From IMG/VR virus record IMGVR_UViG_2526164631_000017: a stretch of 12,891 nucleotides of DNA; one strand, written 5' to 3'. The DNA comes from a virus (Duplodnaviria; Heunggongvirae; Uroviricota; Caudoviricetes). The translations under genes were made by a program, and so were the position numbers. This document shows, one piece after another, positions 1 to 12,891 of this stretch. The notes under the pieces are model-generated. The model was not told the DNA's origin and did no database searches. It saw only the letters and a program-made list of their open reading frames with translations. Each line of letters starts with the position of its first letter. Within the stretch, counting starts at the first letter, position 1.

Positions 1-284
1 GCAGCTACAGGTTGTGACCGGGGGGAGGTTGTAGGGACAACATCTTCGGCATCAAGTGTTATCGGGAGCAGCTCAGGCACGTTGTTTTCTGTTGTTGAAG
101 GAGGACGTAGTTTTCCTTCGCGCCAGTACTGGCGCCACTTGAACAGCAAATTATCGTTGATCCCATGCTCACGAGCGAGTTGCGCTACGGAGATCTCTGG
201 TCGATGCGAGAGTTCAACCATTTTGATTTTGAACTCAACGGGATAATTAGGGCTTTTTTTACGCACTGCGGTTAATGATTTCAT
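1..284 (-). CDS. IS66-family orf1 (TnpA-like) accessory protein, N-terminal part; gene runs leftward out of the window
   Basis: Reverse-complement translation from ATG (complement of 282-284): MKSLTAVRKKSPNYPVEFKIKMVELSHRPEISVAQLAREHGINDNLLFKWRQYWREGKL..., with the HTH-like motif seen in IS-encoded small DNA-binding proteins. Starts 81 bp inside the terminal repeat. Family assignment rests mainly on the terminal repeat, not on this protein. Confidence 0.55.
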   Translation of the reverse strand, partial: MKSLTAVRKKSPNYPVEFKIKMVELSHRPEISVAQLAREHGINDNLLFKWRQYWREGKLRPPSTTENNVPELLPITLDAEDVVPTTSPRSQPVA

Positions 285-339
285 GGATAGCGTCCACCAT
301 ATTTGGTGTCCACTATTCTCTCAGGAATTTCAGGATCTG

Positions 340-365
340 CCAGACGGTGCTGAGACGACGCTTAC
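340..365 (-). repeat. Terminal inverted repeat (IRL-like) of the left IS66-family copy
   Basis: Read inward from 365 on the minus strand: GTAAGCG... Imperfect match to 12550-12575. Confidence 0.6.
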
Positions 366-1986
366 GGATTACCGTCGTGTGGCGCTGACGGATTATGACC
401 GTTTCCCTGAAAACGTGGACGGGGAAGGGGATGCCTTCACCCTGGCATCAAAGCGTACCACCACCTTTATGTCCTCGGGGATGACCCTGGTCGAGAGTTC
501 GCCGGGGCGGGATATCACTGACACCAAATGGCGCTGTGGCGGCGCACATGAGGCACCGCCAACAACGGGGATCCTGTCACTGTATAACCGGGGAGACCGC
601 CGCCGGTGGTACTGGCCGTGTCCGCACTGCGGGGAATATTTTCAGCCGGTGATGGATAACATGACCGGATACCGGAATAACCCGGATTTTGTGGCTGCCG
701 GTCAGGCTGCCCGTCTGATGTGTCCGCATTGTCGCGGGCTGATTGCCCCTGAGCAGAAACGCGAACTGAATAACAAAGGGATCTGGCTTCGTGAAGGTGA
801 ACGGGCGGTGGCGGACGGCAGTATCACCGGAACGCCACGAAATTCCCGGATTGCGTCATTCTGGATGGAGGGGCCGGCTGCGGCGTTTCAGACCTGGGAA
901 CAACTGATTTTTAAACTGCTGGCGGCAGAAGAAGAGTATGAGCGAACCGGCAGTGAAGAGACCCTGAAAGCGGTGGTGAACACCGATATCGGACGCCCCT
1001 ATCTGCCCCGTTCAGCCACGGAACAGCGTAAAAGTGAACTGCTTGAACAGCGTGCCGAGCCGTTTCCCCGGCGATCTGTGCCGGATGGTGTGCGTTTTAT
1101 TGAGGCAACGGTTGACGTACAGGGCGGTAAAAATCGCCGTTTTGTTGTGCAGATCACCGGATACGGAGAGCAGGGGGAACGCTGGATTGTTGATCGCTAT
1201 AACATCCGGCATTCACTGCGCTGCAGTCCCAACGGTGAAAGTCTGCCGGTTGATCCGGCGGCATATCCGGAGGACTGGGATTTGTTGCTGACGGATGTGT
1301 TCCATAAAACATGGCCGCTGGCTTCTGATCCGGATGTGCGCATGCGTCTGATGGCCATGGCGGTGGATACGGGAGGGGAAGCCGGGGTGACAGATAACGC
1401 CTATCGTTTCTGGTGTCGTTGCCGGAGTGACGGACTGGGCAACAGGGTGTTTCTGTTCAAGGGGGATGGACTTCGCCGTGACAGGCTGATTAACCGTACC
1501 TTCCCGGATAATACCGGCAGAAGTGCCCGCCGTGCCAGAGCCAGTGGCGATGTCGCGCTGTGGCTGGTTCAGACGGATGCGTTTAAGGACCGTGTAAATA
1601 ATGCCCTGTGGCGTGACACACCAGGGCCGAACTATATCCACTTTCCCGACTGGCTGGGGCGATGGTTTTACGATGAGCTGACCTATGAAGAGCGCGGCAG
1701 TGACGGAAAATGGCGAAAACCGGGCAGGGGAGCTAACGAGGCGTTTGACCTGCTGGTTTATGCGGATGCGCTTGCCGTTCTGCATGGTTACGAAAAGATC
1801 CGCTGGCCCTCCGCACCGGACTGGGCACAGCGGGAAACGTGGCTCGTCTTCCCGCAGGAGCGTTCTGGTGAAACGGTATCCCCGGAACTGACGGCCGGGG
1901 CAGAAAAACGCCGTCGCCGGAAGAAAAAACTGCGGACGGAGCGTGCGGAAGATAATCCATGGATAACATCAGGAGGCTGGTTGTGA
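366..1986 (+). pseudogene. Terminase large subunit (GpA-like), 5'-truncated by IS insertion
   Basis: Long ORF immediately upstream of gpW-like and portal genes; two CPHC motifs (WPCPHCGEYF, MCPHCRGLI) as in GpA-type terminases. The first 27 codons of the tracked ORF (283-365) lie inside the IS terminal repeat, so the ATG at 283 is not a native start. By rough comparison with lambda gpA from memory, about 100+ N-terminal residues are missing, including the ATPase region. Stop TGA at 1984-1986. Confidence 0.8.
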
Positions 1987-2195
1987 GCACAGAAGAAGCC
2001 AGAGAAATGATACAGCGGTACCGTGAAGCGGAAATGGCCGTACTGGAGGGGAAGTCTGTCACCTTCAACGGACAGCAACTGACGCTGGAAAGCCTTTCTC
2101 AGATCCGCGCCGGACGTCAGGAGTGGGAACGCAGGCTTGCCGCGATGGTGAGCCGCAGGCGGGGAAAACCAGGATTTAAACTGGCGAGGTTTTAA
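1983..2195 (+). CDS. W: Head-tail joining protein, gpW-like
   Basis: C-terminus RRRGKPGFKLARF resembles lambda gpW C-terminus (RRRGPAGF.. from memory); about 70 aa; sits between terminase and portal. Likely start is GTG 1983 with AGGAGG at 1971-1976, overlapping the terminase stop as GTGA; the alternative ATG at 1959 (track ORF) cannot be excluded. Confidence 0.75.
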   Translation: MSTEEAREMIQRYREAEMAVLEGKSVTFNGQQLTLESLSQIRAGRQEWERRLAAMVSRRRGKPGFKLARF

Positions 2196-3697
2196 TGGCA
2201 ATTATTGATGATGTGATAGGCGTGTTTTCCCCCGGCTGGAAAGCAGCCAGACTGCGTTCAAGGGCGTTAATCATGGCCTATGAGGCGGTGAAACCGACCC
2301 GGACACATAAAGCCCGGCGGGAAAATCGCTCTGCTGATCAGCTCAGTAAATACGGTGCGGTTTCCCTGCGGGAGCAGGCCCGTTTTCTGGATATCAATCA
2401 TGACCTGGTGATTGGTGTGTTTGACAAGCTGGAAGAGCGGGTGATTGGTGCCAGGGGAATTATTGTGGAGCCTCAGCCATTACGAAAAAACGGGGAAATG
2501 GCGGCAGAGCTGGCTGCGGATATCCGCCGGTTGTGGGCTGAGTGGTCCGTGAGTCCGGATGTGACAGGGCAGTATACCCGTCCCGTGCTTGAACGTTTAC
2601 TGCTGCGGACCTGGCTGCGGGATGGTGAAGTGTTTGCGCAGATGGTCAGTGGTGCGGGAAACGGTCTGGAACGGACGGCGGGAGTGCCATTCTGGCTTGA
2701 GGCGATGGAGCCGGATTTTGTTCCCATGCGCACTGATGAATCCGCCGGACTGAATCAGGGGGTTTTTCTTGATGAGTGGGGAAGACCGAAAAAATATCTG
2801 GTTTATAAAAATTATCCGGTCAGCGGCCGGCAGAGTGATACGAAAGAAATCGCTGCCGGAAAAATGATCCACCTGAAGTTCACTCGTCGTCTGCATCAGA
2901 CGCGAGGCTCATCCATGTTATCGGGGGTGCTGATGCGGATCAGTGCCCTTAAGGAGTATGAGGATGCGGAACTCACTGCGGCGCGTATTGCCGCGGCGCT
3001 GGGACTGTATATCCGTAAAGGTGACGGGCAGGACTATGAAGAGCCGGGGATCAAAGAAACCGACCGGGAAGTCCATATCACCCCGGGTATTATTTATGAC
3101 GATTTGCGCAAGGGCGAGGATATCGGCATGGTCAAATCAGACCGTCCCAATCCCAACCTTGAAACTTTCCGCAACGGCCAGTTGCGTGCAGTGGCAGCGG
3201 GCAGTCGTCTGAGTTTTTCCAGTGCGGCGCGTAACTATAACGGCACCTACAGTGCCCAGCGGCAGGAGCTGGTCGAGTCCACGGATGGTTACCTGATCCT
3301 GCAGGACTGTTTTATTGGCGCGGTAACCCGTCCGGTGTACCGGACATGGCTGAATATGGTGGTTGCGGCAGGTCTGCTGAAAATTCCGGCGGATGTGGAG
3401 ATGAAAACGCTATATAACGCGACGTATTCCGGTCCGGTGATGCCGTGGATCGACCCGGTTAAGGAAGCTGAAGCCTGGAGAATTCAGATCCGGGGTGGTG
3501 CAGCGACAGAATCTGACTGGGTGCGTGCCGGCGGGCGCAATCCGGATGAGGTCAAACGTCGCCGCAAGGCTGAAATTGATGAAAACAGCAGACTGGGGCT
3601 GGTCTTTGATACTGACCCCGTCAACGACAAAGGAGGCAACAGTGCCGGAACTGAACAACAGCGTCAGCAGGCCACCGACAGCCAGCATGAAGAATAA
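2195..3697 (+). CDS. Portal protein
   Basis: 500-aa ORF directly after gpW-like gene and before the protease gene (canonical terminase–W–portal–protease order); start ATG overlaps the W stop (TAATG). Not closely similar to lambda gpB by eye, so this is a mosaic head module. Confidence 0.75.
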   Translation: MAIIDDVIGVFSPGWKAARLRSRALIMAYEAVKPTRTHKARRENRSADQLSKYGAVSLREQARFLDINHDLVIGVFDKLEERVIGARGIIVEPQPLRKNGEMAAELAADIRRLWAEWSVSPDVTGQYTRPVLERLLLRTWLRDGEVFAQMVSGAGNGLERTAGVPFWLEAMEPDFVPMRTDESAGLNQGVFLDEWGRPKKYLVYKNYPVSGRQSDTKEIAAGKMIHLKFTRRLHQTRGSSMLSGVLMRISALKEYEDAELTAARIAAALGLYIRKGDGQDYEEPGIKETDREVHITPGIIYDDLRKGEDIGMVKSDRPNPNLETFRNGQLRAVAAGSRLSFSSAARNYNGTYSAQRQELVESTDGYLILQDCFIGAVTRPVYRTWLNMVVAAGLLKIPADVEMKTLYNATYSGPVMPWIDPVKEAEAWRIQIRGGAATESDWVRAGGRNPDEVKRRRKAEIDENSRLGLVFDTDPVNDKGGNSAGTEQQRQQATDSQHEE

Positions 3698-5666
3698 ATC
3701 CTGGTTCAGGATGCAGGCGGGTGGTCAGGGTGAGGCGGATATTTATATTTATGACGAGATTGGTTTCTGGGGAGTTACCGCGAAGCAGTTTGTCAGCGAT
3801 ATGAATGCCCTGGGTGATATCACCCACATTAATCTCCACATCAACTCACCGGGTGGCGATGTCTTTGAAGGCATCGCCATTTTTAATGCCCTGAAAAATC
3901 ACGGTGCGGCCATTACCGTGTATGTGGATGGCGTTGCCGCCTCGATGGCATCCCTGATTGCGATGGCCGGTGACACGGTCATTATGCCGGAAAATGCCTT
4001 CATGATGATCCATAAACCCTGGGGGATCAGCGGTGGTGATGCGGAGAAAATGCGCACTTATGCCGAACGTCTGGACAAACTTGAGTCGGTTATGGTGCCG
4101 GTATATGCGCAGAAAACCGGAAAAACTACCGATGAAATTGCCGCCATGCTGGCGGATGAGACCTGGATGTCCGGTGCCGAGTGTCTGGCACACGGATTTG
4201 CAGACCAGGTGACGCCAGCCGTTAAGGCAATGGCATGTATTCAGTCAAAACGTACAGAGGAATTTAAAAAGATGCCGGAATCCATCCGAAATATGATCAC
4301 GCAGCCATACAACAGTGCCCCGCGTGATACCACAGTGACAATCCCTGCACCGGCGGTAACAGAACCATCACCGGTACCGGCAGTGTCTGATGAGGCGACC
4401 ATTCGCGCCCGCGTTATGGCAGAACAGAAAGCCCGCATGTCAGGCATTAACGATCTGTTTGCCATGTTCGGCGGTCGCTATCAGACGCTTCAGGCACAGT
4501 GCGTGGCTGATCCTGACTGTTCGCTGGAAATGGCCCGTGAACGTCTGCTGAATGAAATGGGCAAGGAGTCCTCGCCGACCAACAAAAATACACCGGCTCA
4601 TATTTATGCCGGAAACGGCAATTTTGTGGGGGACGGGATCCGCCAGGCGATGCTGGCCCGTGCCGGATTTGAAAATGTCGAGAAGGATAACGCCTATAAC
4701 GGGATGACCCTGCGTGAATGGGCTCGCATGTCACTGACGGAGCGCGGTATTGGGGTGGCCAGTTATAACCCCATGCAGATGGTCGGGCTGGCGCTGACGC
4801 ACAGCACCTCTGATTTTGGCAATATTCTGCTGGATGTGTCGAACAAGGGGCTGATCCAGGGCTGGGAGGAATCAGAAGAAACCTTCCAGAAGTGGACCCG
4901 TAAGGGACGCCTGTCAGACTTCAAAACAGCGTATCGCGTGGGGATGGGCGGTTTTGGTTCTCTGCGCCAGGTTCGTGAGGGGGCGGAGTATAAATACATC
5001 ACCACCTCAGATCGCAAGGAGACCATTGCACTGGCCACTTACGGGGAGATTTTCTCCATCACCCGCCAGGCCATTATCAATGATGATCTGAATATGCTGG
5101 TGGACGTGCCGATGAAGATGGGGCGTGCGGCGAAGGCAACGATTGGTGACCTGGTTTACAAGGTGCTGACGGATAACCCGAAACTGTCAGACGGTAAGGC
5201 GCTGTTCCATGCCGATCACAAAAATATTGCCACCGGTGGGATTTCCGTTTCCGGACTGGATGCGGCCCGTCAGATGATGCGCCTGCAGAAAGAAGGCGAT
5301 CGCGCCCTGAATATCCGTCCGGCCTTTATGCTGGTACCGGTGGCACTGGAGACGGTGGCGAACCAGACCATCAAATCGGCCAGTGTGAAAGGGGCGGATG
5401 CAAACGCCGGTGTCATTAACCCCATCCAGAACTTTGCTGAGGTGATTGCAGAAGCGCGTCTTGATGCGGCAGATCCGAAAACCTGGTATCTGGCGGCGGC
5501 ACAGGGCACTGACACCATTGAAGTGGCCTGGCTGGATGGTGTGGACACGCCATACATTGATCAGCAGGAAGGTTTCACCACTGACGGCATTGCCACAAAA
5601 ATCCGTATTGATGCCGGAGTGGCACCACTTGACTGGCGCGGGCTGGTGCGTTCGTCGGTGGCCTGA
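3642..5666 (+). CDS. Prohead protease (ClpP-like) – scaffold – putative major capsid fusion protein
   Basis: N-terminal domain has ClpP-type motifs: GVAASMASLIAMAGD (GxxSMA catalytic Ser context) and MMIHKPWG (catalytic His context). No separate major-capsid-sized gene follows, and the C-terminal ~350 aa look like an HK97-fold capsid domain (inference). Proposed start is GTG 3642 with AAAGGAGG 5 nt upstream; the track ORF start 3495 and ATG 3687 are alternatives. Confidence 0.7.
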   Translation: MPELNNSVSRPPTASMKNKSWFRMQAGGQGEADIYIYDEIGFWGVTAKQFVSDMNALGDITHINLHINSPGGDVFEGIAIFNALKNHGAAITVYVDGVAASMASLIAMAGDTVIMPENAFMMIHKPWGISGGDAEKMRTYAERLDKLESVMVPVYAQKTGKTTDEIAAMLADETWMSGAECLAHGFADQVTPAVKAMACIQSKRTEEFKKMPESIRNMITQPYNSAPRDTTVTIPAPAVTEPSPVPAVSDEATIRARVMAEQKARMSGINDLFAMFGGRYQTLQAQCVADPDCSLEMARERLLNEMGKESSPTNKNTPAHIYAGNGNFVGDGIRQAMLARAGFENVEKDNAYNGMTLREWARMSLTERGIGVASYNPMQMVGLALTHSTSDFGNILLDVSNKGLIQGWEESEETFQKWTRKGRLSDFKTAYRVGMGGFGSLRQVREGAEYKYITTSDRKETIALATYGEIFSITRQAIINDDLNMLVDVPMKMGRAAKATIGDLVYKVLTDNPKLSDGKALFHADHKNIATGGISVSGLDAARQMMRLQKEGDRALNIRPAFMLVPVALETVANQTIKSASVKGADANAGVINPIQNFAEVIAEARLDAADPKTWYLAAAQGTDTIEVAWLDGVDTPYIDQQEGFTTDGIATKIRIDAGVAPLDWRGLVRSSVA

Positions 5667-5688
5667 TAACCGAGTTATCACAATCACT

Positions 5689-5707
5689 GCCCGAAAGGGC
5701 TTTTTTT
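5689..5707 (+). terminator. Candidate intrinsic terminator after the capsid gene
   Basis: GCCC-GAAA-GGGC hairpin (4-bp GC stem, GNRA-type loop) followed by T7 at 5701-5707, 23 nt after the stop at 5666. The stem is short, so this may be a partial terminator. Confidence 0.4.
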
Positions 5708-5718
5708 ATGCCTGAAAA

Positions 5719-5737
5719 ACAGCCCCACAGGGGCTGT
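5719..5737 (+). promoter_or_regulatory. Perfect hairpin (8-bp stem ACAGCCCC / GGGGCTGT, 3-nt loop) upstream of the next gene's ribosome-binding site
   Basis: Seen directly in sequence. No T-run follows. GGAG at 5740-5743 and ATG at 5754 lie just downstream. Possible RNA stability or translation-control element. Confidence 0.3.
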
Positions 5738-5753
5738 CCGGAGAAACAGCATT

Positions 5754-6080
5754 ATGGCGAAAAATTTTGTACAGGACGGTACCACCATTGAACTGGTGAA
5801 TGCCGGAGATCAGACCATCCTGAGCGGTGCTGCGGTGGTGGTCGGCAGTATGGTGGCCGTGGCCATTACAGATATTCCTGCCGGTGATGCCGGTGACGGT
5901 TTTGCCGAAGGCGTGTTCCTTCTGCCCAAACAGTCTGCTGACGACATTCAGTCCGGCGCGGTGGTTTATCTGAAGGACGGGGTTGTGCAGCTGGCTGCAG
6001 AGGGTGCGGTGGCCGCGGGGGTAGCCTGGGAAAATGCTCCTGCAAACAGCGCCACTGTGGCGGTAAAAATCAATGTCTGA
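5754..6080 (+). CDS. Small head protein, DUF2190-like (putative decoration or head-associated protein)
   Basis: 108 aa, Gly/Ala/Val-rich: MAKNFVQDGTTIELVNAGDQ...; resembles the small conserved proteins commonly encoded next to major capsid genes (from memory; function is inference). Confidence 0.5.
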   Translation: MAKNFVQDGTTIELVNAGDQTILSGAAVVVGSMVAVAITDIPAGDAGDGFAEGVFLLPKQSADDIQSGAVVYLKDGVVQLAAEGAVAAGVAWENAPANSATVAVKINV

Positions 6081-6354
6081 TCTGTTTACGCGAATGTGTT
6101 GCCGGATGGACGGGGCGACCGTTCGGGTGATGGGCAAACAGGCGGAGATTAACGGCGTCGTGTATGACGTGATGCCGGAGGAAGAGTCCGCGGAGATGGG
6201 GGCGCTTTCGGGCAGCCAGTTGTCACTGGTGGTGTTTTCAGCCCGGTACCGTCCGGCCCGTCATGATGTTGTTGTGTTTGCGGGGCGCACACTGACGGTG
6301 ACCCGTTATGACACGTACAACGGTAAACCCCGGATTTTTGTCGAACAGGAATGA
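6073..6354 (+). CDS. Putative head completion / head-tail connector protein (at the FII position)
   Basis: 93-aa ORF between the head genes and gpZ; start ATG overlaps the upstream stop (ATGTCTGA). Assignment is by position only; similarity to lambda FII is weak. Confidence 0.4.
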   Translation: MSDLFTRMCCRMDGATVRVMGKQAEINGVVYDVMPEEESAEMGALSGSQLSLVVFSARYRPARHDVVVFAGRTLTVTRYDTYNGKPRIFVEQE

Positions 6355-6356
6355 GT

Positions 6357-6980
6357 ATGGCAATAAAAGGTCTGGCGCAGGCCATGAAAAATCTGGATGC
6401 AATTGACCGCCGTGCCGTTCCCCGGGCTGCCGCCACGACACTTAACCGTGTGGCGGAGTCCATCATCGCGAAAACGGCCTCTTCGGTTGCCAGGGAGCTG
6501 GCGGTTCCGCGCCGTCTCATCCGTGAGCGTATCCGCCTGCAACGGGCTAGCGCAGACAGGATTTATGCGAAGGTCATCATCAACACCGGTAATCTGCCCG
6601 CCATAAAACTGGGGACGGCCAGCGTGCGGCTTTCCCGCAGAAAGCGACGAAAGAAAGGCGAGCGTTCGGTCAAGAAAGGGGGCGGCAGTGTGCTGATTGT
6701 GGGGAAAAGACGGATCCCGGACGCCTTTATCACCCGGCTGGCTAACGGACGCTGGCATGTGATGCAGCGTATGCCGTGGGCACCATCGTCCACCGGTGCT
6801 GACAGCAAAGGGAGGCCGAAACGCTACCGTCTGCCGATTGAAGTGGTGAAAATTCCGACTGCCGGACCGCTGGCAGAAACTTTTGAACGTGAACGGGACC
6901 GGATGTACCGGGAAAAATTACCGGCGCAGATGATGAAAGCCATGACGCATCAGTTACGCCTGGTGCTGAAAAGAAAATGA
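6357..6980 (+). CDS. Z: Minor tail protein Z (tail completion)
   Basis: Directly upstream of unmistakable gpU; basic run RRKRRKKGERS and motif GRWHVMQR, which I associate with the GpZ family. Start ATG 6357 (MAIKG...) preferred over 6351. Confidence 0.7.
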   Translation: MAIKGLAQAMKNLDAIDRRAVPRAAATTLNRVAESIIAKTASSVARELAVPRRLIRERIRLQRASADRIYAKVIINTGNLPAIKLGTASVRLSRRKRRKKGERSVKKGGGSVLIVGKRRIPDAFITRLANGRWHVMQRMPWAPSSTGADSKGRPKRYRLPIEVVKIPTAGPLAETFERERDRMYREKLPAQMMKAMTHQLRLVLKRK

Positions 6981-6992
6981 CAGGGAGGGTGT

Positions 6993-7391
6993 ATGAAACA
7001 CCGTGAAATACGGACGGCAGTTCTGTCTGCCCTGAAAGACAATATTTCTGAGCGGGTGAGCTGGTTTGACGGCCGCCCGGTTTTTATTGATGAACAGGAA
7101 CTGCCTGCTGTTGCTGTTTACCTGACTGATGCGTCTGCTGCTGACGAGTTCGTTGATGAGGGGACCTGGGAGGCGACACTGCATATTGAAGTTTTTCTCA
7201 GGGCAAAAGAACCGGACTCGGCACTGGATATGTGGATGGAAGAGAAAATCCTTCCTGCGCTGGAGGCGGTTCCCGGCCTCAGTGCGTTACTGCTGAAGAT
7301 GAATCTTCAGGGGTATGACTACCGCCGGGATGATGAGTTTATGATGTGGGGATCGGCAGATCTCCTGTGGAAAATTACCTACGAGATGTGA
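6993..7391 (+). CDS. U: Tail terminator protein U
   Basis: 132 aa; [14 protein letters not shown]...LHIEVFL...GYDYRRDD...ITYEM closely matches lambda gpU as recalled. GGGAGG ribosome-binding site upstream. Confidence 0.9.
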
Positions 7392-7398
7392 GGACGAT

Positions 7399-8151
7399 AT
7401 GGCAATACCAAATCCTCTTGAGCCGGTGAAAGGTTCCGGCACCACACTATGGGTGTACACCGGCAAGGATGATGCTTATGCCAACCCGTTGTCAGATGAT
7501 GACTGGCAGCGACTGGCTAAGGTGAAGGATCTGACGCCGGGCGAGATGACGGCAGAATCCTACGATGATAACTACCTGGATGATGAAGACGCGGACTGGA
7601 GCGCGACCGGGCAGGGACAGAAATCTGCAGGTGATACCAGTTTTACACTGGCCTGGAAACCGGGAGAGGAAGGCCAGAAAGGGCTTATAGGCTGGTTTGA
7701 AAGCGGCGATGTGCGGGCCTATAAAATCCGTTTCCCGAACGGCACGGTGGATGTGTTCCGTGGCTGGGTCAGCAGTATCGGTAAGGCCGTAACGGCGAAG
7801 GAAGTGATCACCCGTACGGTGAAAGTGACCAACGTGGGTAAACCTTCTGTGGCGGAAGAACGCAGCGAAATTACGCCGGCCACTGCAATTAAGGTGACAC
7901 CGACATCCGGTACCGTGGAAAAAGGGAAAACAACCACCCTGACTGTTTCTTTTGAGCCGGAAAGTGCAACCGACAAGACGTTCAGAGCGGTTTCCGCCGA
8001 TCCGTCAACGGGAACCATTGCTGTGAAAGATATGGTGATCACTGTGACGGGGGTTAAGGCTGGAAAAGTGAGTATCCCCGTGATTTCCGGTAATGGTCAG
8101 TTTGCCACGGTAGCTGAAGTCACCGTTACTGAAGCAGGCGCTGCAGGGTAA
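7399..8151 (+). CDS. V: Major tail protein V, including C-terminal Ig-like domain
   Basis: 250 aa; long stretches identical to lambda gpV as recalled ([59 protein letters not shown]). C-terminal ~90 aa is Thr/Val-rich, Ig-like. Confidence 0.92.
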
Positions 8152-8164
8152 ACGGAGGTCATAC

Positions 8165-8596
8165 ATGTTTCTGAAAACAGAACAATTTGAATATAACGGT
8201 GTGTCTGTCACGCTTTCCGAGCTGTCTGCGCTGCAGCGTATTGAGCATCTTGCCCTCCTGAAACGGCGGGCAGAAGAGGCTGAAGCCAGCGGCAACCTGC
8301 AGGTGAGTGTGGAAGATCTTGTCAGAACCGGCGCGTTTCTGGTGGCGATGTCCCTGTGGCATAACCATCCACAGAAAACGCAGTCACCGTCAATGAATGA
8401 GGCCGTGATGAAGATAGAGCAGGAAGTGCTCACCACCTGGCCTGCCGATGCCATTGCCCGGGCGGAAGACGTGGTGTTGTGCCTGTCCGGGATGATCGAA
8501 GCTGTTCGTCCGGATACTGATATTACTGAAGTGGCGAAAAATAACACGCTGACTGATGATGATTTTTCTGCGGGAAAGTCTTCGACGGTGAGCTGA
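8165..8596 (+). CDS. G: Tail assembly chaperone G
   Basis: 143 aa; MFLKTEQFEYNGVSVTLSELSALQRIEHLAL...GAFLVAMSLWHNHPQKTQ matches lambda gpG as recalled; ends ...SAGKSSTVS. Confidence 0.92.
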   Translation: MFLKTEQFEYNGVSVTLSELSALQRIEHLALLKRRAEEAEASGNLQVSVEDLVRTGAFLVAMSLWHNHPQKTQSPSMNEAVMKIEQEVLTTWPADAIARAEDVVLCLSGMIEAVRPDTDITEVAKNNTLTDDDFSAGKSSTVS

Positions 8597-9027
8597 ACTT
8601 TGCCCTCAGACTGGCGCGTGAGATGGGGAGACCCGACTGGCGCGCCATGCTTGCCGGGATGACATCCACCGAATATGCCGACTGGCACCGTTTTTACCGC
8701 ACGCATTATTTTCAGGATACCCAGCTGGATATGCATTTTTCCGGGCTGACGTACGCTGTACTCAGCCTGTTTTTTTGCGATCCGGATATGCATCCCTCTG
8801 ATTTCAGTCTGCTGGCACCCCGACGTGATGATGAGCAGACGGAGATGCCGGATGAGGACGATATGCTGATGCGGAAAGCGGCAGGTCTTTCTGGTGGTGT
8901 CCGCTTTGGGGCTGACGGGAAGGAAATCGTTATGGTCAGTGATGACATGCGGAGCAGTACAGAGGATGAAGCCATGCTGATGATGGTGTCTGAGGGAATT
9001 CCAGGAGGTGTACGCTATGGCGGGTAA
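8165..9027 (+). CDS. T: Tail assembly chaperone G-T fusion made by programmed -1 ribosomal frameshift (slip at 8572-8578; T-frame part 8578-9027)
   Basis: Slippery heptamer G GGA AAG at 8572-8578 in the G frame, near the end of G. The -1 frame is open from there to TAA at 9025-9027 (VFDGELNFALRLAREMGRPDWRAMLAGMTS...), and the 8623-9027 track ORF is its tail. Same arrangement as lambda G/G-T. Confidence 0.85.
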
Positions 9028-11623
9028 TTTTGCCGATCTGACAGCTGTTCTTACACTGGATTCAACCCGTTTTTCTGAAGAGGCTGCACGGGTAAAGAAA
9101 GAACTGGGTGAAGCCAGTGACCTTGCGGATTTGATGGCCGTGCGTGTCAGCCAGTCTTTTAAGAAACAGGCCGCTGCTGTTGAGCAGGGGCTGAGCCGTC
9201 AGGCGCTGGCTGCACAAAAAGCCGGGATTTCCGTCGGGCAGTATAAAGCGGCCATGCGTACGCTACCCATGCAGTTCACCGACGTGACCACGCAGCTTGC
9301 CGGTGGTCAGAATCCCTGGCTAATTCTGCTGCAACAGGGCGGGCAGATTAAGGACTCGTTCGGTGGGATGATCCCCATGTTCCGGGGACTGGCTGGGGCC
9401 GTCTCGCTGCCTGCTGTCGGAATTGGTGCGCTTGCTGCTGCCACGGGGGTGCTGGCGTATGCCTGGTACCGGGGCGACGCCACGCTTTCAGAATTTAATA
9501 AAACGCTGGTTCTTTCCGGTAATCAGTCCGGACTGACTGCCGATCGCATGCTGACGCTCTCCAGAGCCGGACAGGCCGCGGGGCTGACGTTTAACCAGGC
9601 GAGAGAGTCACTGGCAGCCATGGTGAATGCCGGTGTGCGTGGTGGTGAACAGTTTGATGCCATCAACCAGAGTGTCGCGCGTTTTGCTTCTGCATCCGAC
9701 GTGGAGGTGGACAAGGTTGCAGAGGCTTTCGGAAAACTGACCACTGACCCGACGTCGGGGCTGATTGCGATGGCGAAGCTGTTCCATAACGTGACGGCAG
9801 AGCAGATTGCGTATGTTGCACAGTTACAGCGTTCCGGTGATGAGGCCGGGGCATTGCAGGCGGCGAACGATATTGCCACGAAAGGCTTTGATGAGCAGAC
9901 CCGTCGCCTGAAAGAAAACATGGGGACGCTGGAGACCTGGGCGGATAAAACAGGGAAGGCGTTCAAATCGATGTGGGATGCCATCCTGGATATCGGTCGT
10001 CCGGAATCCTCAGCGGATATGCTCGCCAGTGCGCAGAAGGCATTTGATGAGGCGGATAAAAAATGGCAGTGGTACCAGAGCCGGAGCCAGCGCCGCGGTA
10101 AAACCTCCTCTTTCCGGGCCAACCTTCAGGGCGCATGGGATGACCGGGAAAATGCCCGTCTGGGTCTGGCAGCGGCAACGCTGCAGTCGGATATGGAAAA
10201 AGCCGGTGAACTGGCGGCAAGGGACAGGGCTGAGCGTGAGTCGTCACAGCTGAAGTATACCGGAGAGGCGCAGAAGGCGTATGAGCGCCTGCTGACGCCA
10301 CTGGAGAAATATACCGCCCGGCAGGAAGAGCTGAATAAGGCCCTGAAAGACGGAAAAATCCTGCAGGCGGATTACAACACGCTGATGGCGTCGGCAAAAA
10401 AGGATTATGAATCGACGCAGAAAAAGCCGTCAGGTGTGAAGGTGTCTGCCGGTGAGCGCCAGGAAGACCGGGCGCATGCAGCCATGCTGTCGCTTGAAAC
10501 TGAGCTCAGGACGCTGGAGAAGCACAGCGGTGCGAATGAAAAAATCAGCCAGCAGCGCCGGGATTTATGGAAAGCGGAAAATCAGTATGTGGTCCTGAAA
10601 GAGGCCGCCACGAAACGGCAGTTATCTGAGCAGGAAAAATCCCTGCTGGCTCATGAGAAAGAGACGCTGGAGTACAAACGCCAGCTGGCTGAGCTGGGCG
10701 ACAAGGTTGAACACCAGAAACGGCTGAATGAGCTGGCACAGCAGGCGGCGCGGTTTGAACAGCAGCAGAGTGCGAAGCAGGCGGCAATCAGCGCAAAAGC
10801 CCGCGGACTCACCGACCGTCAGGCGCAGCGGGAGTCGGAAGAGCAGCGCCTTCGTGAGGTGTACGGTGATAATCCGGATGCGCTGGCGAAGGCCACATCT
10901 GCACTGAAGAACACCTGGTCTGCGGAGGAGCAGCTTCGTGGAAGCTGGATGGCCGGGATGAAGTCCGGCTGGGGTGAGTGGGCGGAAAGTGCGACGGACA
11001 GTTTTTCGCAGGTTAAAAGCGTGGCCACGCAGACCTTTGACGGTATTGCACAGAATATGGCAGCGATGCTGACCGGCAGTGAGCAGAACTGGCGCAGCTT
11101 CACCCGTTCCGTGCTGTCCATGATGACAGAAATTCTGCTTAAGCAGGCAATGGTGGGGATTGTCGGGAGTATCGGTAGCGCCATTGGCGGGGCTGTTGGT
11201 GGCGGCGCATCCGCATCAGGCGGTACAGCCATTCAGGCAGCTGCGGCGAAATTCCATTTTGCAACCGGAGGATTTACGGGAACCGGCGGCAAATATGAGC
11301 CAGCGGGAATTGTTCACCGCGGTGAATTCGTCTTCACGAAGGAGGCAACCAGACGGATTGGCGTGGGGAATCTCTACCGGCTGATGCGCGGCTATGCCAC
11401 CGGCGGTTATGTCGGTACACCGGGCAGCATGGCGGACAGCCGGTCGCAGGCGTCCGGGACGTTTGAGCAGAATAACCATGTGGTGATTAACAACGACGGC
11501 ACGAACGGTCAGATAGGGCCACAGGCACTGAAGGCTGTTTATGACGTAGCCCGTAAGGCGGCAATGGATGTTGTGACCGGGCAGATGCGCGATGGTGGTC
11601 TGTTCTCCGGAGGTGGACGATGA
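9017..11623 (+). CDS. H: Tail tape measure protein H
   Basis: About 868 aa; N- and C-terminal thirds closely match lambda gpH as recalled (QALAAQKAGISVGQYKAAMR, LILLQQGGQ, C-terminal GGFTGTGGKYEPAGIVHRGEFVFTKEAT). ATG 9017 with AGGAGG at 9003-9008 preferred over the GTG 9008 track start. Confidence 0.92.
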   Translation: MAGNFADLTAVLTLDSTRFSEEAARVKKELGEASDLADLMAVRVSQSFKKQAAAVEQGLSRQALAAQKAGISVGQYKAAMRTLPMQFTDVTTQLAGGQNPWLILLQQGGQIKDSFGGMIPMFRGLAGAVSLPAVGIGALAAATGVLAYAWYRGDATLSEFNKTLVLSGNQSGLTADRMLTLSRAGQAAGLTFNQARESLAAMVNAGVRGGEQFDAINQSVARFASASDVEVDKVAEAFGKLTTDPTSGLIAMAKLFHNVTAEQIAYVAQLQRSGDEAGALQAANDIATKGFDEQTRRLKENMGTLETWADKTGKAFKSMWDAILDIGRPESSADMLASAQKAFDEADKKWQWYQSRSQRRGKTSSFRANLQGAWDDRENARLGLAAATLQSDMEKAGELAARDRAERESSQLKYTGEAQKAYERLLTPLEKYTARQEELNKALKDGKILQADYNTLMASAKKDYESTQKKPSGVKVSAGERQEDRAHAAMLSLETELRTLEKHSGANEKISQQRRDLWKAENQYVVLKEAATKRQLSEQEKSLLAHEKETLEYKRQLAELGDKVEHQKRLNELAQQAARFEQQQSAKQAAISAKARGLTDRQAQRESEEQRLREVYGDNPDALAKATSALKNTWSAEEQLRGSWMAGMKSGWGEWAESATDSFSQVKSVATQTFDGIAQNMAAMLTGSEQNWRSFTRSVLSMMTEILLKQAMVGIVGSIGSAIGGAVGGGASASGGTAIQAAAAKFHFATGGFTGTGGKYEPAGIVHRGEFVFTKEATRRIGVGNLYRLMRGYATGGYVGTPGSMADSRSQASGTFEQNNHVVINNDGTNGQIGPQALKAVYDVARKAAMDVVTGQMRDGGLFSGGGR

Positions 11624-11949
11624 AAACCTTCCGCTGGAAAGTGAAACCCGGTATGGATGTGGCTTCTGCCCCTTCCGTAAGAAAGGTGCGCTTTGGTGAT
11701 GGCTATTCCCAGCGAGCGCCTGCCGGGCTGAACACTGACCTGAAAACGTACAGCGTGACGCTTTCTGTTCCCCGTTGGGAGGCCGCGGCGCTGGAGTCGT
11801 TTCTGGCTGAGCACGGGGGCTGGAAGGCCTTTCTGTGGACGCCGCCTTATGGCTACCGGCAGATAAAGGTGACCTGCGCAAAATGGTCGTCGCGGGTCAG
11901 TATGCTGCGTGTTGAGTTCAGCGCAGAGTTTGAACAGGTGGTGAACTGA
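11620..11949 (+). CDS. M: Minor tail protein M
   Basis: 109 aa; MKTFRWKVKPGMDVAS...KVTCAKWSSRVSMLRVEFSAEFEQVVN near-identical to lambda gpM as recalled. Start overlaps the H stop (ATGA). Confidence 0.93.
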   Translation: MKTFRWKVKPGMDVASAPSVRKVRFGDGYSQRAPAGLNTDLKTYSVTLSVPRWEAAALESFLAEHGGWKAFLWTPPYGYRQIKVTCAKWSSRVSMLRVEFSAEFEQVVN

Positions 11950-12549
11950 TGCAGGATATCCGACAGGAAACACTGAATGAATGCACCCGTGCGGAGCAGT
12001 CTGCCAGCGTGGTGCTCTGGGAAATCGACCTGACAGAGGTCGGTGGAGAACGTTATTTTTTCTGTAATGAGCAGAACGAAAAAGGTGAGCCGGTCACCTG
12101 GCAGGGGCGACAGTATCAGCCGTATCCCATTCAGGGGAGTGGTTTTGAACTGAATGGCAAAGGCACCAGTACGCGCCCCACGCTGACGGTTTCTAACCTG
12201 TACGGTATGGTCACCGGCATGGCGGAAGATATGCAGAGTCTGGTCGGCGGAACGGTGGTCAGGCGTAAGGTTTACGCCCGTTTTCTGGATGCGGTGAATT
12301 TCGTCAACGGAAACAGCGACGCCGATCCGGAGCAGGAGGTGATCAGCCGCTGGCGCATCGAGCAGTGCAGCGAACTGAGCGCGGTCAGTGCCTCCTTTGT
12401 ACTGTCCACGCCGACGGAAACGGACGGCGCTGTTTTTCCGGGACGTATCATGCTGGCCAACACCTGCACCTGGACCTATCGCGGCGATGAGTGCGGTTAT
12501 CACGGTCCGGCGGTCGCGGATGAATATGACCAGCCAACGTCCGATATCA
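11949..12549 (+). pseudogene. L: Minor tail protein L, 3'-truncated by IS insertion
   Basis: First ~200 aa match lambda gpL as recalled (MQDIRQETLNECTRAEQSASVVLWEIDL...GPAVADEYDQPTSDI). Homology stops at 12549, where the IS terminal repeat begins, and the ORF then reads 35 unrelated codons to a stop at 12659. The Cys-rich C-terminal region recalled for lambda gpL is missing. Confidence 0.85.
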
Positions 12550-12575
12550 GTAAGCGGCTCGCCAGAACCGTATTG
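12550..12575 (-). repeat. Terminal inverted repeat (IRR-like) of the right IS66-family copy
   Basis: GTAAGCGGCTCGCCAGAACCGTATTG begins exactly where gpL homology ends; GTAA terminus; imperfect match to the left repeat. Confidence 0.65.
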
Positions 12576-12579
12576 ATAT

Positions 12580-12891
12580 TTACTGAGAGGTCAGATCAAC
12601 TTTCCAGGGCAACAGATCGCGTACCCGGTTTGCCGGCCAATCCTGGATATGCTCAATGACGTAACGCAGCCATTTTTCTGGTTCCACATTGTTCAGACGG
12701 CATGTGCCGATCAGCGAGTACAACACCGCCGCATGTTCGCCACCGCTGTCGGAACCCGCGAACAGCCAGTTTTTCCGGCCTACGGCCACTCCCCGTAAGG
12801 CGTTCTCTGCGATGTTGTTGTCGATTTCCACCCAGCCATTACTGCAGTACACGTTCAGGCCATCCCACTGTTTCAGCAGGTATGCGAACGC
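12580..12891 (-). CDS. tnpC: IS66-family transposase (TnpC), C-terminal part; gene starts beyond the window end
   Basis: Translation ...VEIDNNIAENALRGVAVGRKNWLFAGSDSGGEHAAVLYSLIGTCRLNNVEPEKWLRYVIEHIQDWPANRVRDLLPW is the conserved C-terminal signature of IS66-family transposases. The reading frame stays open upstream of the tracked start to the window edge. Confidence 0.88.
   Translation of the reverse strand, partial: AFAYLLKQWDGLNVYCSNGWVEIDNNIAENALRGVAVGRKNWLFAGSDSGGEHAAVLYSLIGTCRLNNVEPEKWLRYVIEHIQDWPANRVRDLLPWKVDLTSQ

Follow-up and report, generated by a model that had tools for sequence, protein, structure and literature searches.

Two different IS66-family insertion sequences, probably inserted independently, bound the head-tail module of a lambda-like Escherichia coli prophage

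The late operon of phage lambda exhibits the gene order A-W-B-C...Z-U-V-G-T-H-M-L-K-I-J, with frameshifting between G and T at the slippery site G GGA AAG. VT1-Sakai and CP-1639 have the same head-tail module as the locus described here, with 93-94% nucleotide identity and an IS element, IS629 of the IS3 family, inside it. Elements of the IS66 family possess three genes, namely tnpA with an HTH, tnpB and a DDE-type tnpC, and duplicate 8 bp of their target. IS679, one of the two insertion sequences discussed below, was reportedly first described by Han et al. in 2001 in J Bacteriol, on the EPEC plasmid pB171. The terminal inverted repeats of IS66-family elements start with 5'-GTAAGCG (PMC12888890), and the published length of ISEc22 is 2454 bp (PMC5001619). 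IS insertions and IS-linked indels in prophages have been described in a review (PMC6379469).

The window, i.e. the whole stretch of 12,891 bp that was analysed, is one entire draft contig (AIHA01000063.1, assembly GCA_000250215.2, DECA collection) from the E. coli O111:H2 'DEC12' lineage. It is the late head-tail block of a common, long-tailed lambda-like E. coli prophage, each end being cut by a different known IS66-family IS. Both ISs being multi-copy repeats, the assembler stopped within each of them; the window therefore begins and ends at assembly breaks and shows just 365 bp of one IS and 342 bp of the other. Apart from one patch and one SNP, the window equals positions 15001-27890 of the locus of strain 12A (L001), whose near-identical genome is closed, with both junctions identical. 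Other contigs of the source strain hold the outer sides of both ISs, and we infer the outer architecture of this strain from three closed or near-closed assemblies with identical inner junctions. Among 5426 complete genomes surveyed, the module is present over at least 80% of its length in 413, the left junction in two and the contiguous deletion junction described below in one, while a scan of GTDB representative genomes found no instance of the exact right deletion junction.

All genes of the module lie on the plus strand; the coordinates of the portal gene are those of L007 (source contig, 100% identical to the window) plus 1948. After the terminase fragment comes a gene of 70 aa (1983..2195), an annotated CDS in strain 12A, which probably corresponds to the head-tail joining gene gpW by its position, its match to DUF6148 being weak. 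It is followed by the portal protein (2195..3697; PF05136, Phage_portal_2), a fusion of a ClpP-like prohead protease and the major capsid protein (3687..5666; PF00574, PF01972, PF25209 and the RefSeq name), a head decoration or cement protein (5754..6080; PF09956, Phage_cement_2), a Gifsy-2-family head-tail connector protein (6073..6354; PF13856), the minor tail protein Z (6357..6980; PF06763), the tail terminator gpU (6993..7391; PF06141) and the major tail protein gpV, a 250-aa product carrying Big_2 at its C-terminus (7399..8151; PF16461, PF02368). The tail assembly chaperone region (8165..9027) comprises gpG (8165-8596) and the gpT frame (8623-9027), matched by PF06894 and PF06223; a heptamer for -1 slippage of the lambda type, G GGA AAG, occupies 8572-8578. 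The tape measure protein gpH (9017..11623; PF06791, PF09718) and the minor tail protein gpM (11620..11949; PF05939) precede gpL.

The order of gpA, portal, protease/capsid, Z, U, V, G/T with its frameshift site, H, M and L is thus collinear with the lambda late operon, and the Pfam families of gpA, portal, Z, U, G, T, H, M and L, as well as the slippery site, are common to both. In contrast, the C/Nu3/D/E head genes of lambda have their counterpart here in a head of the ClpP-protease/capsid-fusion type. The identity of the module with phages 1720a-02, CP-1639 and VT1-Sakai and with Stx2 phages is 90-94%. The ISs of VT1-Sakai and CP-1639 occupy other insertion sites and belong to the IS3/IS629 group, whereas those of the window are of the IS66 family. 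Positions 7713-8218 form a mosaic patch from another lambdoid prophage allele, and the resulting chimeric gpV of 250 aa is found in none of the independent assemblies, only in the source contig; the patch may reflect gene conversion or an assembly chimera.

Both genes at the edges of the module are truncated, as the initial annotation had stated. The terminase large subunit of the gpA type is present as a 3' fragment (366..1986, plus strand; PF05876, PF20454) encoding residues 169-707, and alignment with the intact 707-aa protein from the prophage of strain 602687 shows that residues 1-168 are absent. The fragment retains positions 127-247 of the 247 of PF05876 (GpA_ATPase) and the complete nuclease domain PF20454; in strain 12A, it is a RefSeq pseudogene with a missing N-terminus. 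A mechanically called ORF (283-1986) prefixes the fragment with 27 IS-encoded codons, and a consensus promoter scan of positions 1-700 for an outward IS promoter of this chimeric ORF gave no sigma-70-like site. At the other edge, gpL (11949..12549, plus strand; PF05100, TIGR01600) keeps residues 1-200 of 232, the last 32 codons being absent in comparison with the same intact prophage; it covers positions 1-175 of the 206 of PF05100 and 2-193 of the 224 of TIGR01600. Its ORF extends to 12659 via 36 IS-encoded codons, and this gpL-IS fusion has been annotated automatically as an intact 'minor tail protein L' (WP_001152630.1).

The two truncation points coincide with GTAAGCG motifs, of which the window contains exactly two, at 359-365 on the minus strand and at 12550-12556 on the plus strand. 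The 7-mer by itself is not significant, with about one match expected and at least two in 54 of 200 shuffles; these sites matter because each falls precisely on a limit of the similarity to intact prophages, relatives without interruption matching the window at 361-12549 only. The GTAAGCG-initiated ends proposed earlier at 365 and 12550 are therefore confirmed. The assignment of both ends to the IS66 family and their placement on the minus strand, tnpA-proximal on the left and tnpC-proximal on the right, agree with the coding matches: TnpA profiles on the left (NF038385) and DDE_Tnp_IS66 profiles on the right (PF03050, NF033517). The first 30 bases of the two visible ends agree at 18 positions, which is family-level conservation of the inverted repeats and not identity.

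The left element (1..365, minus strand) is the tnpA-proximal (IRL) part of an ISEc22-like member of the IS66 family, the contig stopping within it at base 1. Its terminal repeat ends in GTAAGCG (365-359, minus strand), and the N-terminal 94 codons of an IS66-type TnpA run on the minus strand from an ATG at 284 down to 3. This fragment matches PF01527 (E=4e-12) and the IS66 TnpA profile NF038385 (E=8.5e-25), the latter below its cutoff because of the truncation. The 365 bp are 100% identical to positions 15001-15365 of the strain 12A locus, where the element measures 2454 bp, starts with GTAAGCG at both ends and is annotated in RefSeq as tnpA, tnpB and an ISEc22-family transposase; tnpB and the transposase were read from this full copy, identical over the shared 365 bp. 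In the sister genomes, full copies share with ISEc22 the length of 2454 bp, the tnpA-tnpB-tnpC layout, the GTAAGCG repeats and an 8-bp duplication, and no difference was detected from ISEc22, of which the window shows 365 bp only.

The 8-mer GGATTACC (366-373) is the inner copy of the target-site duplication of ISEc22, the outer copy lying beyond the window. It flanks ISEc22 on both sides in strain 12A and in FDAARGOS_1059 (L003), and is present once in the uninterrupted locus L002. The missing 5' part of the terminase gene lies directly beyond ISEc22 in strain 12A, which, by the outward check suggested in the initial annotation, identifies a simple insertion, accompanied by an 8-bp duplication of its own. 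ISEc22 entered the terminase gene at codons 168-171, duplicating GGATTACC and splitting the Walker-A-bearing N-terminus from the remaining ATPase and nuclease domain. Beyond base 1 of the window, one would thus expect the rest of ISEc22, then GGATTACC and terminase codons 1-170, ending with TTCTTCGGATTACC.

The right element (12550..12891, minus strand) likewise belongs to the IS66 family and is the tnpC-proximal (IRR) part of an IS679-like element, within which the contig stops at 12891. It starts with the terminus GTAAGCG (12550-12556, plus strand) and contains, on the minus strand, the 103 C-terminal codons of an IS66 DDE transposase gene (12891-12583, stop at 12582-12580), which match PF03050 (E=1e-17), PF13817 (E=6e-17) and NF033517 (E=3e-32). 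It is 100% identical to positions 27549-27890 of the strain 12A locus, where the element is 2704 bp long, belongs to the IS679 family by annotation, and encodes TnpA (216 aa), TnpB (115 aa) and TnpC (523 aa); plasmid copies that bear the IS679 annotation match it with 100% identity. It thus resembles IS679 in length, in tnpA/tnpB/tnpC content and in the 8-bp duplication seen in FDAARGOS_1059. The names ISEc22 and IS679 are suggested by the way RefSeq annotates the two elements, by their lengths and by their identity to copies already annotated.

In FDAARGOS_1059, IS679 sits in gpK with GGATTATT on both sides, gpL is intact (699 nt) and a 5' fragment of 138 nt of gpK remains; tccP2 and espV lie downstream in this genome. 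The IS679 end adjoins CCGATATCA, and not GGATTATT, in strain 12A, in three further loci (L004, L005 and L006) and in the window, and all five lack 234 bp that the uninterrupted locus possesses at L002 24180-24413. In the window alone, where the IS end simply adjoins gpL codon 200, a single insertion of IS679 straight into gpL with no later deletion would be sufficient, but this is very unlikely: the flanking 8-mers in strain 12A are unequal (CGATATCA at 12542-12549 of the window vs GGATTATT), the 234 bp of prophage sequence are absent between them, and FDAARGOS_1059, with a perfect duplication of GGATTATT in gpK, has the same outer junction as strain 12A. FDAARGOS_1059 thus preserves the precursor state, and the truncation of gpL is secondary, because in that genome IS679 lies in gpK and gpL is intact. 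The earlier claim that IS insertion truncated both genes therefore holds for the terminase, interrupted by ISEc22, but not for gpL, which was truncated by a deletion of 242 bp adjacent to IS679. IS679 (2704 bp) entered gpK at about codon 45, duplicating GGATTATT, and the later loss beside its tnpC-proximal end removed one copy of the duplication, 131 nt from the start of gpK, 98 nt from the end of gpL and the 5 nt between the two genes, joining the intact IS679 end to gpL codon 200. Since this adjacent deletion removed one flank of IS679, no duplication is left in the lineage of the window. One-ended, intramolecular transposition may have caused the deletion, or a further IS679 copy may have inserted and then recombined with the first; both routes yield identical products and are indistinguishable here. 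Beyond base 12891, IS679 would continue, followed by GGATTATT and gpK from about codon 45 onward (GGATTATTTCCGG).

The initial annotation had also treated the ends as directly repeated IS66-family copies able to delete the 12.2 kb between them by recombination, and had left a composite element or IS-mediated rearrangement possible. In such a reading, two copies of one IS66-family element mobilised the head-tail block or can delete it. The shared family, the equal orientation and the similar terminal repeats (18/30 bases) are compatible with this reading, which we nevertheless consider extremely improbable. The ISEc22-like (2454 bp) and IS679-like (2704 bp) elements of strain 12A are two different insertion sequences, aligning in parts only, with 68-75% identity and a longest exact shared run of 20 nt. 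RecBCD-dependent recombination in E. coli requires a minimal perfectly matched segment of roughly 23-27 bp. The pair would therefore be a poor substrate for the homologous deletion proposed earlier. IS679 and the ISCro1-like copy, with 94% identity and an exact run of 164 nt, could give rise to a deletion of roughly 10 kb. The same IS does not occur twice around a cargo, and there is no single duplication confined to the outer ends; each element has its own, and the outer flanks, GGATTACC and GGATTATT, lie within contiguous prophage genes. The block is in its native gene order, the 5' part of the terminase gene and the 3' part of gpK lying directly outside the ISs, and for the sister genomes the composite reading is already refuted. 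The difference between the 8-mers abutting the inner ends, GGATTACC and CGATATCA, had been correctly noted; the view that insertions and a composite or rearranged element could not be distinguished gives way to independent insertions, as indicated by the separate duplications in the sister genomes. The chance that the junctions are artefacts of short-read draft assembly, i.e. chimeric contig ends, is close to nil: the window is an entire draft contig ending in repeats, and its internal patch (7713-8218) is unique to the source assembly, but the junctions are 100% identical in the independent assemblies CP077479, CP066032 (left junction), UGFE01 and UARW01.

Independent insertions of ISEc22 and IS679, followed by the IS679-adjacent deletion, in a module of the VT1-Sakai/CP-1639 type are thus very probable as a whole scheme, and comparative sequence demonstrates the three individual steps. 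A regional or orientation bias of IS66-family elements in lambdoid late operons seems unlikely. Four independent IS66-type insertions were seen, all antisense to late transcription, an outcome expected by chance in about 1 of 8 cases and thus of no statistical weight. Those counted are ISEc22 in the terminase gene, IS679 in gpK and two ISCro1-like elements, one between the tail-fibre genes and the other, in strain TB354, in the gpL-gpK spacer. GGATTA is common to two of the target 8-mers, and a genome scan collecting the flanks of ISEc22-like ends found no GGATTA consensus among 18 others.

The gene disruptions support the earlier expectation of a defective prophage, which would be unable to package its DNA or to build its tail tip. 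This is ordinary prophage decay with no new mobile element; every event is of a known kind, and the significance is small beyond bookkeeping. The locus nevertheless teaches some caution. Where a draft contig ends on either side in a piece of IS, this reflects breaks in assembly and is no proof of the same IS; elements of one family may look alike over their inverted repeats though too diverged to recombine, and automatic annotation may pass a gpL-IS fusion as an intact protein, as in WP_001152630.1. Finally, the locus cleanly illustrates, step by step, how a lambdoid prophage with effector genes becomes locked in the chromosome via insertion, insertion and adjacent deletion, with the precursor and derived states both kept in sister genomes.

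The window consists of collinear plus-strand phage morphogenesis genes with a short minus-strand transposase fragment at either end, as seen from the ORF list and from inspection of the ends. Gene identities were assigned from Pfam matches on the called genes. The order is: the terminase large subunit gpA, which matches only positions 127-247 of the ATPase profile together with a complete nuclease domain; a 70-aa gene in the gpW position; the portal; a ClpP-like protease/capsid fusion; a cement protein; a Gifsy-2-type connector; gpZ, gpU and gpV, the last with a Big_2 domain; gpG and gpT; the tape measure; and gpM and gpL. A lambda-type slippery heptamer for -1 frameshifting (G GGA AAG) is located at 8572-8578, six codons upstream of the gpG stop, and the gpT frame lies downstream at 8623-9027. 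Phages 1720a-02, CP-1639, VT1-Sakai and several Stx2 phages share 90-94% identity with the block; in a census of 5426 complete E. coli genomes, 413 carried at least 80% of the module.

The initial annotation had placed GTAAGCG at both IS ends and both elements on the minus strand, and both observations hold. The window contains two copies of the heptamer, one on the minus strand at 365-359 and one on the plus strand at 12550-12556, a count that is not significant by itself; uninterrupted prophages match the window only at 361-12549, and these limits coincide with both sites. The left fragment (1-365) encodes residues 1-94 of an IS66-type TnpA, with its ATG at 284, and the right fragment (12550-12891) encodes the final 103 residues of an IS66 DDE transposase, both on the minus strand. 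The 8-mers abutting the inner ends were also read correctly. The window is the entire draft contig AIHA01000063.1 (GCA_000250215.2; 100% identity), whose accession prefix is among those used for drafts from the E. coli DECA collection (PMC3558956). The assembly broke off at 1 and 12891 within multi-copy IS, leaving 365 and 342 bp of IS visible.

Full copies of both elements are present in E. coli O111:H2 strain 12A (closed genome CP077479; L001), which aligns over the full window at 99.4% identity. Of the 89 alignment columns that differ, 88 lie at 7713-8218 and one at 11014; neither the IS fragments nor the junctions contain any. The left element (L001 12912-15365) is annotated with tnpA (134 aa), tnpB and an 'ISEc22 family transposase', and its 2454 bp equal the published length of ISEc22 (PMC5001619). 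The right element (L001 27549-30252; 2704 bp) is annotated with tnpA (216 aa), tnpB and an 'IS679 family transposase', and is 100% identical to IS679-annotated plasmid copies, one of them on a plasmid of strain FDAARGOS_1059. The two full copies can be aligned in parts only, at 68-75% identity, and their longest common exact run is 20 nt. They are thus different elements, one ISEc22-like and one IS679-like. Their visible ends agree at 18 of the first 30 bases, an inverted-repeat signature common to the family (GTAAGCG ... ACCGT) that does not show the elements to be identical. For RecBCD-dependent recombination in E. coli, the minimal perfectly matched segment is about 23-27 bp. As the 20-nt run is shorter than this, the proposal that the two copies are substrates for homologous deletion of the intervening 12.2 kb is not supported.

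Another IS66-family element, ISCro1-like and with its own duplication CATGAACA, lies between tail-fibre genes in 12A (L001 37503-40200) and FDAARGOS_1059 (L003 37744-40441). It shares its orientation with IS679, and the two are 94% identical across 2286 bp and have an exact run of 164 nt in common. Unlike the ISEc22/IS679 pair of the window, these two are a realistic recombination substrate, and their recombination would delete gpK'-I-J-lom-tail fibre. In 12A, an IS2 is inserted beside the ISCro1-like element.

At the left junction, the ISEc22-like element has GGATTACC on either side in both 12A and FDAARGOS_1059; this sequence is at 366-373 in the window, and the uninterrupted terminase gene of strain 602687 (L002) contains it once. 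The missing 5' part of the terminase gene, which the initial annotation suggested looking for beyond the IS, is present right there in 12A, where 522 nt directly adjoin the outer side of the element. This is a simple insertion, at codons 168-171 of the 707-codon gene. The insertion parts an N-terminus bearing VGPARTGKT, which reads as a Walker-A-like motif, from the remaining ATPase and nuclease domain. A chimeric ORF (283-1986; 27 IS-encoded codons and terminase residues 169-707) crosses the junction, and a consensus promoter scan of 1-700 revealed no outward sigma-70-like promoter able to express it. The junction is present in two of the 5426 complete genomes, 12A and FDAARGOS_1059.

The right junction has a different history. 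In FDAARGOS_1059, a perfect 8-bp duplication, GGATTATT (L003 27782-27789), bounds the same IS679 copy, which lies about 131 nt into gpK (C40 peptidase), while gpL is intact (699 nt). The outer junction, CGCTTAC followed directly by GGATTATTTCCGG, is common to FDAARGOS_1059, 12A and the assemblies UGFE01 and UARW01, and is expected beyond the right end of the window too. In 12A, UGFE01, UARW01 and the window, the tnpC-proximal IS679 end is fused to CCGATATCA at gpL codon 200. Relative to the intact L002, 234 bp (24180-24413) are absent; relative to L003, 242 bp are absent, including one duplication copy. As IS679 sits in gpK beside an intact gpL in one strain and these 242 bp are absent from the 12A-type junction, the gpL truncation is a secondary, IS-adjacent deletion. 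The loss of the gpL 3' end at the right IS is therefore real, but its cause is a deletion following the gpK insertion. An IS end could have transposed intramolecularly, or a second IS679 could have inserted at CGATATCA and recombined with the first; both routes give identical products. A scan of the 5426 complete genomes found no deletion intermediate, and the contiguous deletion junction in one genome, 12A.

The lost gpL residues, 201-232, contain three cysteines (KDKCSKCLSGC). In lambda gpL, the C-terminal cysteines reportedly coordinate an Fe-S cluster, in work by Tam et al. from 2013, so the truncated protein has likely lost its function. The resulting chimeric ORF (11949-12659), comprising gpL residues 1-200 and 36 IS-encoded codons, is labelled intact minor tail protein L in RefSeq (WP_001152630.1) and overlaps the opposite-strand transposase C-terminus at 12580-12659. 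An exact-protein look-up placed it in four assemblies, including AIHA01000063.1.

Whether the two elements inserted independently or through a rearrangement or composite element had been left open; the separate duplications GGATTACC and GGATTATT in L003 indicate independent insertions. The first six bases of both targets are alike (GGATTA), which is probably a coincidence, since no such consensus appears in 18 further flanks of ISEc22-like insertions in other genera. In a related prophage of E. coli TB354 (L036 3683-6381), an independent ISCro1-like insertion occupies the gpL-gpK intergenic spacer, likewise antisense to the late operon, with an apparent duplication AGTAAATCC, 9 bp as read; gpL and gpK are both intact.

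The patch at 7713-8218, covering the 3' half of gpV (its C-terminal half) and the start of gpG, agrees at 80 of 82 informative sites with a second lambdoid prophage carried by FDAARGOS_1059 (L008), while on either side of it the window follows the in-situ 12A allele at 50/50 and 47/47 sites. The chimeric 250-aa gpV was found only in the source draft contig. Two origins come into question for the patch, gene conversion between prophages or a chimeric assembly.

Among the complete genomes, the insertions are common to 12A and FDAARGOS_1059, with the deletion junction in 12A only, so both insertions preceded the 242-bp deletion. The initial interpretation thus stands as to two IS66-family elements truncating terminase and gpL, but not as to a single IS or the origin of the gpL loss. 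With the terminase large subunit split, gpL truncated and gpK interrupted, it is reasonable to infer, as initially proposed, that the prophage is packaging- and tail-defective; the 12A tail-fibre region additionally holds the ISCro1-like element and IS2. The comparison prophage of 602687, regarded as intact, has a frameshifted portal gene (L002 13834-15328) and, downstream of its tail fibres, a copy of ISEc22; either it is not necessarily functional or this is a sequencing error. Downstream of the tail fibres, the same prophage carries the type III effector genes tccP2/EspF-repeat protein and espV, both partly pseudogenised (L003 40840-43131; L002 34514-36103), so the IS-crippled prophage is an effector carrier. 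In all, two known IS66-family elements entered a common lambdoid prophage in separate insertions, and one IS-adjacent deletion came later. Every type of event seen here is already known biology, and the state of the prophage agrees with what is known of prophage decay driven by IS (PMC6379469).
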